Assembly: GCA_038874595.1 (NCBI GenBank)
Contig: JAVZCB010000003.1
Span: forward strand, 32,001-96,000
DNA from: Candidatus Micrarchaeia archaeon
GTDB taxonomy: Archaea > Micrarchaeota > Micrarchaeia > CAILAH01
Direction of reading: 5' to 3'
Length of the DNA stretch: 64,000 bases
Numbering within the stretch: position 1 is the first letter of the stretch; every line of letters begins with the position of its first letter. Under the pieces are notes generated by a model. That model had not been told where the DNA came from. It worked only from the letters and a program-made list of their open reading frames with translations, and did no database searches. Below, one piece after another: positions 45,697 through 51,462 of this stretch. Both the position numbers and the translations under genes were made by a program.

Positions 45697-45724
45697 GAAG
45701 TGCATTTGGCATAGAACTATTGTT
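45697..45724 (-). other. 3' strand of the pre-23S BHB processing stem (pairs with 48619-48646)
   Basis: 14-bp GAAGTGCATTTGGC/GCCAAATGCACTTC helix, 4-bp GAAT/GTTC helix, bulges ATC and TAT, inner TATTGTT/AACAATA. Confidence 0.85.
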
Positions 45725-48620
45725 AAGGGCTTTAGTAGCAGTGGACTCGCAAATCGCCGAAGCTCTAAGCTTACATCCCTGCCCTATCAAACCCGTCTGT
45801 TACGGGCGCCCATACTGCGTCGTTTCGGGTGCGGCTTCGACCTTAGATGCTTTCAGGTCTTATCCGCCTGGAGCGCAGCTACCCGGCAGTGCTTTTCACA
45901 ACCGGTATACCGGAGGCTCCGAGCCATCGTTCCTCTCGTACTAAATGGTCCTTCCCCTCACGCATAATCACACTTCCAGTAGATACCACCGTACTGTCTC
46001 GCGACGTACTGAACCCAGCTCACGTAGCTCTTTAACGGATGAACAACCCGACCCTTGGCGGCTTATGCACCACCAGGATGAGCTGAGCCGACAGCGATGT
46101 ATCAAACCGCGAGGTCGATATGTACTCTCGCCCGCGACCAATCGGTTACCCCCGGGGTAACTTGTCTGACAGCTAGGACCCTCACCAAAAGGGAATGCCT
46201 AGGTTCGCTAGACCCGGCTTTCGCCCCTGCGTTCCACGCTTTTAGGAACACAGTCAGCCCGACATTTGTTCTTGTCCCTTACCGGTGGATTTCTGACCCA
46301 CCTAAGTCGAGCATTGGGCACCCTTGTTTCCTTTTCGAGGGCGTACCACCCCAGCCAAACTATCCACCTGCAGCTGTCCTTCGGATGAAGTAAGGGTTAT
46401 CGTCTCCGTTGGGTGGTGTTACAGGATTGACTCCACGCAGCCCAGAAGCTGCGCTTCGACGTCTCCCACCTACGCTCTGCAACAGAAACAATAACCCAAC
46501 AACAGGATATAGTGAAGCTCCACGGGGTCTTCTTTTCCCACTGGAAGACCTCGGTATATTCACCGAGTAATGAGTTCACCAGGTCCCGGGTAGGGACAGT
46601 AGAAGAGACGTTATGCCCTTCATGCAAGCCGCCAATTAAGCGGCGAGGTATTACGCTACCTTAAGAGGGTCAGAGTTACCCCCGCTCTTTACCAGCGCTT
46701 AGGCCCGTTGGACCGGGCTTTCACGTACTGGCAGTGAGCAGGCATCGGCCATTGTACTAAGCCTTACGGCTTTGCAATGACCTGTGTTTTTGGTAAACAG
46801 TCGCTCTTCCCTTGTCACTGCGACCTGCTGATGCAACATTTCTGCAACAACAGCAGGCACCCCTTCTTCCTAAGTTACGAGGCTAATTTTCCGAGTTCCC
46901 TTACCCGAGTTCTCCTGCCACGCCTTGGCCTTTTCAGCCAGGGGCACCTGTATTAGTTCTAGGTACGATCTTGCAGGGTCGTTATCCGCTCACTTTTCGT
47001 GGACTCATGGCCTCAACCGAATCCCCAAACGGGGACCATTCCTCACTTTCAACCACTTCTCCTCATAATGAGTCTCGATGGTTGTATGAGAGTTAGACAG
47101 AGTCTCCTCTGCTCGGCCTAGCCGCAAGTGTCATGAGTGGATCTTGCGTTGCCGCACCTACCTGCAAGGCACCGGAATATTAACCGGTTTCCCTTTCGCT
47201 GTAAGGTGATTGGCCTACAGCTTAGGATCGGCTAACTCTCCGCTGACGAACGTTGCGGAGAAAACCGTGCCCTTTCGGCGTTTGGGATTCTCACCCAAAT
47301 TTGCTGTTACTAACACCAGGATATTCATTCCGCACAGCTCCACAGGACCTCACGGCCCTGCTTCTGCACCGTGCCGACGCCTTCCTACTAGATCACACAC
47401 AGAGTGTGCGCTCCTAGGTATCGGTGGCTGGTATAGCCCCTTTATCTTCGGAAACTGCCCTCTCGGTTGGTCCGCTATTACGCGTTGCTTAGAGGATGGC
47501 TGCTTCTAAGCCTACCTCCCAACTGTCTGTGAGAGGGGTTTCCTTAGCGTTTAGCACTTAACCAGCACTTGGGGACCTTAACCTAAGTCTCGGTCGTTCC
47601 CGTCACGCCCCCCGGGTTTACCCCAGGGCACCCGACTGCACCCTTCTACGACGAGCTAATGTTCGGAGTTTAAAAGGGAAGTAGAGCCTTTCGACTCCGT
47701 GTTTCCCGATTAGTGCTCTACCACTAGTTCAGTCTCCAGGTGCGCCATGCTGAGACATGCTTCGGAAGGAACCCGCTATCGCCATGTTCGAATGGACTTT
47801 CACCCCTATACGTCGGTCACCTAAGCAGATATACTAGCACTAGTTGAGCGCCTCCACCGGTTTTTAGACCGGCTTCGCACTGCCAACGCATAGATCACAA
47901 TGGCTTCGGGTCTTGCAGTAGTGATTAACGCCTTTTCAGACGCCCCACCTCGCTTGTACTGCGTGGGCTCGCTTTCGCTCCGCATTTCTGCTCACCACTC
48001 CTGCAAACTCCCTGGCTCTTGCTTCGAGAAGAAAGACAAGACACTGGTCCCCTCATTTCGTTTCCACCCTCTCGAGTGGTCACTTCAATAAGGATCTACC
48101 CTTTCGCGCCTTGCCAACATGTCGCCATACAGTTTCAGGCTCTTTTAACCCTCCTACCTGGAGTGCTTTTCAGCGTTCCCTCACGGTACTAATCCGCTAT
48201 CGGACTCCGGCATCTGTTTAGATTTAGAGGTTGGTACCCCCATATTCCGACTCCCTCAGGGAGCCGTACTCTTTGCACCTTCCTCCAGCACAATCCGCTT
48301 ACGGGGCTATCACCCTTTATCGCAGAGCTTTCCATCTCACTTCAGCTCATGTACTGGATAGAATTGGTGCACCACATCCGCCCCGAAGTTACCCTCGGGG
48401 AGTTCGGTTTGATTCTGTTGGGCGTTCACTCGCCGTTACTAACCCAATCGCAATTGCTTTCTTTTCCTCCCGCTACTAAGATGCTTCAATTCACGGGGTT
48501 ACAGCCCATTTCTGGGCAACGGGCGATCTCGGGTTCAATGGTCGCATGCACCTACCCCGAGCTTATCGCAGCTTGCCACGGCCCAAAGCCGGAACCAGGC
48601 CATCCCCTGTATGGCTTAAA
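45722..48620 (-). rRNA. rrl: 23S rRNA (ends approximate; no intron seen)
   Basis: Sarcin-ricin loop AGTACGAGAGGAAC, PTC segments, GGTAGCGTAAT; ~2.9 kb. Confidence 0.97.
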
Positions 48621-48818
48621 CAATAGATATTCGCCAAATGCACTTCAACCTCATTTCCATCCTCCCATTCGGGAAGATGTGAGCACTCAACGAAGGAAAC
48701 TCACTGTGTCGCTTTTTAGGCAGTTGTGTGTGAAGCACACAATTTGCAACCGAAGGTTGCAACTCCCAAAAAAGCGTAGTTTTTGGTGTCGCTTTTTAGG
48801 CATCCCAAAAAAGCGACT

Positions 48819-48961
48819 TGCAAAGCGGGCGCTCTACCGGACTGAGCTATGAGCCCTTGAGCACGTCACGTTTCTCGATACCGTGACCTGCAGGATGGAC
48901 TCAGCGAGATGCCCAGCACTTTTTTCCTAAAAAAGTGCTTTTGAACTCGCGGCCTCCCGCT
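48819..48961 (-). tRNA. Circularly permuted tRNA-Ala(UGC): 3' half 48961-48896 (with 59/60 intron 48910-48939), 39-nt linker, 5' half 48856-48819
   Basis: GGGCTCA/TGAGTCC acceptor with G3:U70 and A73; CCCGC/GCGGG anticodon stem; terminal BHB TTTG/CAAA with CA|A and AA|A bulges. Confidence 0.9.
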
Positions 48962-48990
48962 TTTTTGGTGTTTCCTTCTCGTGCCTGTAC

Positions 48991-49025
48991 AGGCTTCAAG
49001 AGATTTAGCTTGAGCAAAAAGGCAA
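48991..49025 (-). other. 3' strand of the pre-16S BHB processing stem (pairs with ~51289-51322)
   Basis: AGGCTTCAAGAGA/TCTCTTGAAGCCT helix, GGCT/AGCT 4-bp helix, TAA and AAA bulges, GAGCAA/TTGCTC inner helix. Confidence 0.75.
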
Positions 49026-50004: not shown

Positions 50005-50043
50005 AATTTCCCCCCATCAAACCTTATCTCAAACTCTGTGATT
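49533..50043 (-). mobile_element. 511-nt archaeal BHB-type 16S intron carrying a homing endonuclease (E. coli ~1093-1101; junction ambiguous, alternative 49541-50051)
   Basis: Interrupts TTAAGTCCGGNAACGAGCG; CCGG/CCGG helix with GAA and AAA bulges and ATCACA/TGTGGT inner helix. Confidence 0.85.
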
Positions 50044-50446
50044 TCCCGGACTTAACCGGACAGTTCACACCACGAGCTGACGATGGCCATGCACCACCTC
50101 TCGGCTTGTCAAGCAAGGTCTTTAGCCTGGCTCTCATTCTGCCGTCGTTCCCGGTAAGATTCCCGGCGTTGAATCCAATTGAACCGCAGCCTCCACGCCT
50201 TGTGGTGCTCCCCCGCCAATTCCTTTAAGTTTTAGCCTTGCGGCCGTACTCCCCAGGTGGCAGACTTAACACCTACGCTACGGCACGGCAGCCGCTCAAA
50301 GCTGCTGCCACACCAAGTCTGCATCATTTACAGCTAGGACTACCGGGGTATCTAATCCCGTTTGCTCCCCTAGCCTTCGTTCCTCACCGTCGGACGTGTT
50401 TTGGTCAGGCGCCTTCGCCACTGCTGGTCCGCCCAGGATTAACGGA

Positions 50447-50489
50447 TTGTAATCCCGTGGATTGCAAATTGTTGATGCAATCAACAGGT
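50447..50489 (-). other. 43-nt hairpin 16S intron (E. coli ~696/697)
   Basis: GTAA/TTAC helix, AA|A and AA|T bulges; removal restores GGGGTAAAATCC. Confidence 0.82.
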
Positions 50490-50761
50490 TTTTACCCCTA
50501 CCCCGGGCGTACCCCTGACCTCCCCCACTCCCAAGCCTAGCAGTATTACTGGCCCGCCCTTCGGTTAAGCCGAAGGATTTCACCAGCAACTTACAAGGCC
50601 GGCTACGAACGCTTTAGACCCAATATGCGTGGGTACCACTAGTAGTGCCGGTATTACCGCGGCGGCTGGCACCGGTCTTACCCACTCCTTATTCGCCTAG
50701 TTTTTTAGACTAAGCAAAAGGTCTCCCGAAGGAGACCACTCGGAGTTCCCCCATCACACTT

Positions 50762-50808
50762 TTGCACCTTGCAAAGCAAGTGCAAATTGCAAAGCTCGCT
50801 TTGCATGT
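50762..50808 (-). other. 47-nt hairpin 16S intron (E. coli ~381/382)
   Basis: GCAC/GTGC helix, GA|A and AA|A bulges; removal restores TGCACGAAAGTGTG. Confidence 0.82.
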
Positions 50809-51462
50809 TCGTGCATTGTGGAGTTTTCGCGCCTGCTGCATCCCGTAGGACTAGGGCCCTTGTCTCAGTGCCCTTCTGGGGGCTCCCACTTACATGGCCC
50901 CTAAGGATTATAGGTTTGGTGGGCCGTTACCCCGCCAACAGCCTAATCCTCCGCAACCTCATCCTAAAGCGGACACACTCCAATTCGTGTGCCTTTTGAG
51001 CGAGAGGGCATTCCAGCGTCTCTCACCTATAGGGTATTATCCTCAGTTTCCCGAGGTTACCCCCTTCTTTAGGGCAGATTGATTACGTGTTACTCAGCCG
51101 TTTGCCACTCGTCCAGGTGAACGGGTAGACTTGCATGGCTTAGTCGAACTCCGATAGCAGTACCCTCCAGCAGGATCAACTGGAGTTGCTAAGGTCTTGG
51201 CATTCGCACCAGTGTTGGTGCATCTAGGTCATACCACTTTGCGTGTAGTATCTTACCGTACATATGTGCCTTTCAGCACAGTGCACGTTTGCCTATTGCT
51301 CTTTAAGCCTCTCTTGAAGCCTCTATCTAACCCGACACATCTTCGGATTATCATCAAGTCGCCGCATGTGCGGCCTATGCGCCACAATGGAAGCAGGCCT
51401 CATAGAAAGAGTATCACATCTCGGCCTAGCCGGGTTATGGCATCTCAACTTTAAGAAGTCTA

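Follow-up and report, generated by a model that had tools for sequence, protein, structure and literature searches.

A circularly permuted tRNA-Ala gene in the rRNA operon of a Micrarchaeia archaeon and its probable processing, with the rRNAs, at bulge-helix-bulge sites

We have identified a circularly permuted gene for tRNA-Ala(UGC) in the spacer between the 16S and 23S rRNA genes of a Candidatus Micrarchaeia archaeon, within an operon that carries eight motifs of the bulge-helix-bulge (BHB) type, graded in quality, over 5.7 kb. The sequence analysed, called the window here, is a stretch of 64,000 nt from GenBank assembly GCA_038874595.1 (contig JAVZCB010000003.1, positions 32,001 to 96,000); the source assembly, window included, has 918 kb in 7 contigs and is 93.5% complete, and the runs containing the window are hot-spring metagenomes. 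The organism, a small DPANN archaeon of hot springs, has a single 16S-tRNA(Ala)-23S operon, which is this locus. Taken as a whole, it is probable in our judgement that this eight-BHB operon is processed by the EndA/RtcB pathway, that its permuted spacer gene yields the tRNA in this way and that the permutation originated by duplication. The picture is well supported at the sequence level, and RNA support is available for four of the eight BHB sites, which match junctions in RNA contigs to the nucleotide.

The operon lies on the minus strand of the window, as do all of its features described below, and its positions are read in the RNA sense from high to low. Along each strand of a BHB, from 5′ to 3′, there follow an outer helix (h), a 4-bp central helix (H), a 3-nt bulge and an inner helix (h′), with the cut predicted after the second base of the bulge; cut and ligation points are marked here by ^.

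The tRNA gene is permuted at position 37/38: its 3′ half, a linker and its 5′ half follow one another on the same strand. The 3′ half (A38 to A73; 48896-48961) reads A-GCGGG-AGGCC-GCGAG-UUCAAA, a 30-nt insert and U-CUCGC-UGAGUCC-A, with no CCA encoded after A73. A hairpin linker of 39 nt (48857-48895) separates A73 from G1, and the 5′ half (G1 to A37; 48819-48856) reads GGGCUCA-UA-GCUC...GAGC-G-CCCGC-UUUGCA. The insert is a T-loop (59/60) intron (48910-48939) with a canonical hBHBh′ motif (H UUCA/UGGG), in which h is the T stem and h′ has 10 bp. The rejoined halves, without the insert, make a 74-nt molecule called tRNA-Ala(UGC) by ARAGORN, with every stem intact, a 7-bp acceptor stem, G3:U70, A73 and the T-loop UUCAAAU. 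Neither ARAGORN nor Rfam detected the tRNA in the genomic order; it was detected only once the halves were rejoined. Across 48019-49127 the sequence is covered, with 0-1 mismatches, by Logan contigs of two DNA studies independent of each other, and the permuted order is therefore not a misassembly.

No other Ala(UGC) gene was found in the assembly with ARAGORN or short-word BLAST, the only further tRNA-Ala genes being Ala(GGC) and Ala(CGC). At C1:126837 a stretch of 13 nt matches the anticodon arm, but it turned out to be a plain hairpin, not a tRNA.

The predicted excision motif of the tRNA, a relaxed one, takes its strands from both ends of the permuted gene. The leader half of the motif (48961-48967) provides H CAAA (48967-48964) and the bulge AAA, with a predicted cut after 48962; the side of the 5′ half provides H UUUG (48824-48821) and the bulge CAA (48820-48818), with a predicted cut after 48819. 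Together they read CAAA-(AA^A)-GCGGG with CCCGC-UUUG-(CA^A); the central helix is there, as are the anticodon-stem helix and the two 3-nt bulges. A long-range helix encloses the permuted tRNA when the RNA is folded to minimum energy; its leader strand (48968-48982) pairs with 48704-48690 in the trailer strand (48686-48704). We rejected a BHB formed directly by this helix, as CGAC is unable to pair with CAAA; a search for a nested BHB that would remove two hairpins, A and B, from the trailer gave nothing convincing.

The mechanism that we propose starts from one primary transcript, in which an epsilon2-type EndA would cut the 3-nt bulges and RtcB would seal the ends. Cleavage by EndA after 48962 and 48819 would be followed by ligation of A37 to A38 by RtcB, giving a circular pre-tRNA. 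Its predicted junction, CUUUGCA^AGCGGG, would sit on a molecule that still contains the linker (UCCUGCAGG...GUGCUCAA); RNase Z and RNase P would then remove the 39 nt of the linker, and CCA would be added. For permuted tRNAs of algae a series of BHB cleavage, ligation, circular intermediate, action of RNase P and RNase Z, and CCA addition has been described (PMC3978253).

A route like that of split tRNAs would dispense with the circle: RNase P and RNase Z would cut the linker first, and the paired halves would be joined at 37/38 into a linear tRNA, with the spacer still religated. The acceptor stem, the D arm and the anticodon stem do form already when the unprocessed spacer is folded to minimum energy, and both RNase P RNA and RNase Z are encoded. 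The 30-nt intron, however, breaks up the T arm, which is recognised by RNase P and RNase Z, and should block both enzymes; EndA is therefore expected to act first, by the reasoning applied to the algal genes, in which the T-loop intron must leave before the acceptor loop opens and for which a circular intermediate was observed in Cyanidioschyzon merolae (PMC3978253). We regard the linear route as unlikely and retain the circular one.

The clearest RNA evidence concerns the 23S rRNA gene (45712-48631; Rfam RF02540, 2465 bits), whose processing stem contains two BHBs. The inner BHB (5′ strand 48619-48646, 3′ strand 45697-45724) was found by a strict scanner and is canonical, with H GAAU/GUUC (48632-48629 and 45717-45714), h of 14 bp, h′ of 7 bp, bulges AUC and UAU, and cuts after 48627 and 45712. 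We compared the operon with contig sets of four sequencing runs: two of DNA, each from a different study, and two metatranscriptomes of a single microbial-mat sample. The RNA contigs belong to a close relative, roughly 1-6% divergent in the rRNA pieces and about 6% divergent in the contig with the 23S junction. A joint that goes back 2915, from 48626 to 45712, was present in both RNA runs and in neither DNA run. It is the junction of the inner BHB to the nucleotide, the circle spanning 48626-45712 (2915 nt), and it falls exactly at the BHB where an earlier note on this DNA, made from the letters alone, had 23S rRNA excised as a circle. The contig with the junction has a depth of 361 and 801, like the other 23S contigs of that organism. 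Both the junction and the depth fit the report that mature 23S rRNA is circular in many archaea (PMC12918454). Ligation at the inner BHB would close helix 1 of 23S rRNA (AACAAUA/UAUUGUU) with a 7-nt loop, GUUCUAC.

The outer 23S BHB (5′ strand 48633-48664, 3′ strand 45679-45710) is stacked 20 nt outside the inner one, whose junction is seen in RNA, and may serve as a site of first cleavage, as a reserve or not at all. It too is canonical in the strict scan, with H GAGG/CCUU (48652-48649 and 45697-45694), h of 12 bp, h′ of 14 bp, bulges UUG and AAA, and predicted cuts after 48647 and 45692. G006, one of three genomes from sister genera (G004, G005 and G006) used for comparison, retains both 23S BHBs; in each of them one pair of the central helix is weak.

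The stem that brackets the 16S gene has its 5′ strand at 51289-51322 (H GCUU 51308-51305, bulge AAA 51304-51302, predicted cut after 51303) and its 3′ strand at 48991-49025 (H AAGC 49011-49008, bulge UAA 49007-49005, predicted cut after 49006). The two strands read AGGCUUCAAGAGA-g-GCUU-(AA^A)-GAGCAA and UUGCUC-AAGC-(UA^A)-a-UCUCUUGAAGCCU; the outer helix has 13 bp with one G.A mismatch beside H, and the inner helix is GAGCAA/UUGCUC. The central helix covaries fully and the bulges are kept (AUGC/GCAU in G005 and AUGG/CCAU in G006). EndA and RtcB would excise pre-16S and 23S rRNA from their processing stems, 23S rRNA being circularised at the inner BHB, and the 16S circle is predicted to carry the junction AAGCUA^AGAGCAAUAGG.

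Three further BHB sites belong to introns of the 16S gene (49098-51186; Rfam RF01959, 1400 bits, full model), whose match exceeds the length of the model by about 600 nt, the surplus being located in three insertions. Intron 1 (47 nt, 50762-50808) lies in the loop of the hairpin UGCAC-GAAA-GUGUG; its BHB has H GCAC/GUGC with one mismatch in each flanking helix, CACAaU-GCAC-(GA^A)-C... pairing with ...G-GUGC-(AA^A)-AgUGUG, and its removal restores the hairpin. Intron 2 (43 nt, 50447-50489) has H GUAA/UUAC and a slightly irregular 3′ side, GGG-GUAA-(AA^A)-CCUGU pairing with ACGGG-a-UUAC-(AA^U)-CC, and its removal restores GUAAAAU. Intron 3 (511 nt, 49533-50043) has a relaxed HBh′ motif without an outer helix (H CCGG/CCGG), CCGG-(GA^A)-AUCACA pairing with UGUGGU-CCGG-(AA^A), and its removal restores the hairpin CCGG-UUAAGU-CCGG.

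The RNA contigs skip 47 nt at intron 1 (50760 to 50808; in the RNA runs only), 43 nt at intron 2 (50446 to 50490) and 511 nt at intron 3 (49531 to 50043, with 2 nt of slack, the predicted cuts included). All three predicted boundaries lie within these joints. The skips fix the boundaries of the 16S insertions without strictly proving splicing in this strain; in the proposed mechanism EndA and RtcB would remove these three introns along with the one in the T-loop of the tRNA. DNA contigs of both hot-spring metagenomes include a form of 16S without intron 2 (50446-50490), and therefore intron-bearing and intron-less relatives coexist in these communities.

The genes for the proposed processing (EndA, RtcB, RNase P RNA at 91 bits, and RNase Z at 288.6 bits, slightly below the curated cut-off of 292.95) are present in the genome, which also encodes an archaeal CCA-adding enzyme. 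The only EndA gene is at a contig start (G000:C7:1-733) and includes a run of N. Two pieces of its open reading frame (ORF) match chain A of PDB 4fz2 colinearly (residues 151-260 and 264-387, E values of 1e-43 and 3e-40). Of the three units that make up an epsilon2 chain (alphaN, alpha and betaC), we see the catalytic alpha unit and, C-terminal to it, a beta-like unit; the N-terminal unit lies beyond the contig end. Entry 4fz2 is, we presume, the epsilon2 enzyme of ARMAN-2. The structure of an ARMAN-2 epsilon2 EndA has been reported (PMC12397907). The colinear match suggests that the EndA of this genome is of the epsilon2 type and closest to the solved epsilon2 enzyme. An epsilon2 EndA of broad specificity accepts relaxed motifs (PMC5829648), and an enzyme of this type fits the many non-canonical introns of the genome.

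In the whole genome ARAGORN (introns allowed) found 20 tRNA genes and Rfam 16, and most of the detected genes carry introns of 15-386 nt. Heavy disruption of tRNA genes is the rule here, with roughly half of the set escaping detection on account of non-canonical interruptions. A screen confined to tRNAs whose D arm is intact revealed no permuted gene other than that for Ala.

Comparison with related genomes suggests that the permutation arose recently, from an ordinary tRNA-Ala gene with 37/38 and 59/60 introns. The spacer tRNA-Ala is in the normal order, with introns at both positions, in all three sister-genus genomes, and more distant members of the class have the normal order too; the taxonomic order comprises only nine genomes. 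The tRNA exons differ from those of G006 at one base of the variable loop, and the surrounding spacer and intron sequences have diverged. The last 8 nt of the leader before GCGGG (CCAAAAAA), with the cut after the seventh base, are the 3′ end of the 37/38 intron of G005, and the trailer begins like the same intron (CA^AG...). Since both cut-site contexts match the ends of the G005 intron, EndA would meet the local sequences of a normal gene in a different topology.

Traces of the ancestral gene appear to persist in the trailer. A 10-nt direct repeat, ACACCAAAAA at 48789-48780, repeats 48971-48962 (the intron 3′ end), and the trailer retains a whole ancestral-intron-like unit that ends in this repeat. 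Directly before the conserved CUCACAUC, alignment to G004 and G005 places UUCGUUGAGU-G of the trailer against CUCGCUGAGUCCA of the relatives, which is suggestive of 48686-48704 being what decay has left of tRNA positions about 60-73, at the site of the ancestral gene in the spacer. The route was likely duplication followed by reciprocal decay. In a published model an intron-bearing tRNA gene duplicates and the outer halves are then lost (PMC3978253); the trailer repeat and the relic fit this model, with the decay products still visible here.

Hairpin element A (48788-48817) is followed by the second copy of the intron 3′ end, and element B (48710-48776) is element A with a 40-nt nested insert. 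The two belong to one hairpin family (GYCGCUUUUUUGGGA...GCCUAAAAAGCGRC, then CCAAAAA). In the sister genome G001 version B is present in at least 6 copies of 83-96% identity, one of them inside a T-loop intron, and two G001 copies of the hairpin lie inside tRNA introns (37/38 and 59/60; C9 2009-2038 and C31 about 39050-39130).

The number of motifs is by itself not significant: in the strict scan at a low threshold (h+h′ of at least 11) shuffled sequences yield 10-28 weak BHB-like matches each, and the real sequence yields no more than they do at such thresholds. The h+h′ of the 23S motifs (26 and 21) and of the T-loop intron motif (15) is far above this threshold, the shuffles having been counted at the threshold only, without scoring at 26, 21 or 15. 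A mismatch or a missing helix kept the scanner from recovering the 16S stem, the tRNA excision motif and the motifs of the three 16S introns; they were read by hand and then compared with exon products and RNA joints. All seven sites named in the earlier note were found (the stems bracketing 16S, 23S and the permuted tRNA, and the four introns inside), and its total of seven grows to eight with the outer 23S BHB.

Several observations weigh against the proposed reading of the operon. One concerns the tRNA excision motif. It is relaxed (HBh′), with an outer helix of just 2 bp locally; the long-range leader-trailer helix, of 11 bp, closes the tRNA domain, and two inserted hairpins separate that helix from the motif. 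The trailer moreover holds a second CAAA-AAC strand (48785-48779) able to pair with UUUG in cis, and such pairing could yield a dead-end product. Were this conformation to win, the ancestral intron BHB would re-form, EndA would excise hairpin A and RtcB would join A37 to the trailer (UUUGCA^CUACGC); much of the transcript would be lost, and the yield of tRNA would depend on competition with the leader strand. Retention of the complete ancestral intron in the trailer, ACACCAAAAA-C included, speaks for this outcome, as does the acceptance of relaxed motifs by a broad-specificity epsilon2 enzyme (PMC5829648). We infer, however, that the leader strand has the advantage, since the leader and the 3′ half are transcribed first and could pair once UUUG has been made, about 45 nt before the trailer copy, and that the trailer strand has no helix partner beyond its bulge, UACGC being unable to pair with CCCGC. 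To predominance of the cis conformation we give very little credence, and cleavage at the leader motif is retained as the expected event.

The remaining adverse points concern RNA and distribution. The RNA sample is of a relative, from another sample without a matching DNA run, and the 16S skips could reflect intron-less genes rather than splicing. The depth of the RNA contigs over the spacer (48702-49095) is only 0-0.9; with coverage this close to zero, the lack of RNA evidence for the tRNA circle and the ligated spacer is not evidence of their absence. Nor was a 16S circle joint among the joints listed from the RNA contigs, which likewise is not evidence of absence. The permuted order is present in one genome only, both same-genus assemblies being without the operon, and a second Ala(UGC) gene in the missing part of the assembly is conceivable. 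Scans of public collections for more permuted tRNA-Ala loci gave 0 with a strict pattern and, with a looser one, chance matches only, in unrelated organisms and none with the 5′ half next; they carry no inference on the wider distribution.

Could the permuted gene then be a non-functional relic, with a working tRNA-Ala(UGC) in the unassembled part of the genome or GCA read otherwise? The 93.5% completeness leaves room for this, decay of the locus is visible in the 3′-end relic and the inserted mobile hairpins, and the RNA contigs are silent on the tRNA. Yet all stems of the rejoined tRNA are intact and the identity elements are present, the exons have stayed within one base of those of G006 despite the diverged spacer and introns, the T-loop intron still has its BHB and both cut sites keep their context, the assembly contains no other Ala(UGC) sequence that we could find, and the identical arrangement occurs in the DNA of two studies. 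A relic is improbable on these grounds, and we continue to treat the gene as functional.

If the tRNA is excised as proposed, the spacer need not be lost. The leader, both spacer pieces and the trailer would be religated into one RNA of about 0.4 kb (leader, a 44-nt piece, a roughly 172-nt piece and trailer), with the predicted ligation junctions GGCUUAA^AAUCUCUUG and CACCAAAAA^AGUCGC and, at the 23S site, GAGGUU^AAUUUCCAUCC (outer BHB) or GCGAAUAU^UGCCAAAUG (inner BHB). Because the linker lies inside the excised piece, religation of leader and trailer is possible in any order of events, and the topological argument of the earlier note, that RNase P and RNase Z need not cut the spacer backbone, holds. 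Excised introns are normally circularised as well, and for this reason the three circles counted in that note are too few. In the fullest form of the proposal the operon transcript would be dismantled wholly by EndA and RtcB, into three circles and one religated RNA, with the yield of tRNA tied to rRNA processing; this we advance only tentatively. Ligation of the spacer after 16S excision has been proposed for Haloferax (PMC7038931).

Upstream of the operon is a promoter-like A-rich stretch with a TATA box (TTATAAA; 51465-51478, read by eye), and UUAUAAA boxes were read by eye at the equivalent place in G005 and G006. Directly downstream of 23S the A/T-rich palindrome TTCTTTTCTAAAAGAAAAGAA occurs three times (45524-45546, 45560-45582 and 45652-45674); the first of the three hairpins after 23S (45643-45679) is terminator-like, and all three may be terminators or another small repeat family. 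Within the operon, 16S intron 3 contains an ORF of 164 aa (49510-50004), which runs 23 nt beyond the 3′ splice site into the 16S exon. It has no match in Pfam, NCBIfam or the PDB sequences. By eye it has LAGLIDADG-like motifs, and an Atlas feature search led to LAGLIDADG_3 clusters at 0.92, which we take as a lead only. The product is probably a LAGLIDADG homing endonuclease, likely a distant relative, and we have not filed it as a member of the family.

Circularly permuted tRNA genes are said to have been described from Cyanidioschyzon merolae by Soma in 2007. The permuted genes of this species and of green algae, some of type II (37/38), have in common with ours the upstream 3′ half, the single transcript, a BHB (relaxed in our case) at the junction, the predicted circle route, a possible extra intron and a proposed origin by duplication (PMC3978253). 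The algal genes are eukaryotic and stand alone, whereas the present gene is archaeal and inside an rRNA spacer, with an excision motif relaxed by inserted hairpins. The tRNA-iMet and tRNA-Tyr genes of Thermofilum pendens are likewise archaeal and permuted, with a junction BHB and a second, ordinary intron, and as here they belong to a genome in which many tRNA genes are disrupted (PMC3218864). Their junction is at 59/60 and their ordinary intron at 37/38, the reverse of the positions in our gene; each has a promoter of its own and encodes CCA, and the linkers measure 1 and 7 nt (PMC3218864), in contrast to the 39-nt linker, the lack of an encoded CCA, the co-transcription with rRNA, the DPANN host and the epsilon2-type EndA of the present case. 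These two Thermofilum genes, joined at 59/60, are the archaeal permuted tRNAs in the literature that we searched (PMC3218864, PMC3978253); type II junctions were found there in algae only (PMC3978253), and no permuted tRNA was reported in DPANN archaea or inside an rRNA operon or spacer.

With ordinary 16S-tRNA(Ala)-23S operons (Haloferax volcanii, G004-G006) the locus shares the gene order, the BHB stems and the position of the tRNA. In those operons the tRNA is colinear and RNase P and RNase Z must sever the spacer; here they would only open a piece already excised. Processing by EndA and RtcB at stem BHBs, which is probable here, is shared with the BHB-dependent circular pre-rRNAs of other archaea, as is the 23S junction in abundant RNA (PMC7038931; PMC12918454). 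Other archaea with circular 23S rRNA are described with a GNRA tetraloop at helix 1, in contrast to the 7-nt loop here, and the pair of stacked canonical BHBs, with the observed junction at the inner one, also sets this operon apart from them.

Permuted tRNA genes are rare, and here the arrangement affects an essential, co-transcribed spacer tRNA. If the reading is true, this is the first archaeal permuted tRNA of type II and the first permuted tRNA within an rRNA operon, and the yield of the sole tRNA that reads GCA would be coupled to rRNA processing. The ordinary gene in sister genera and the visible relics of duplication make the model of duplication and loss directly testable. The operon also offers a natural set of substrates, among them a stacked 23S pair and one built-in competitor strand, for the choice and order of motifs by a broad-specificity EndA. 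Its predicted spacer RNA, never severed by RNase P or RNase Z, would be one that ordinary 16S-tRNA-23S operons are unable to make.

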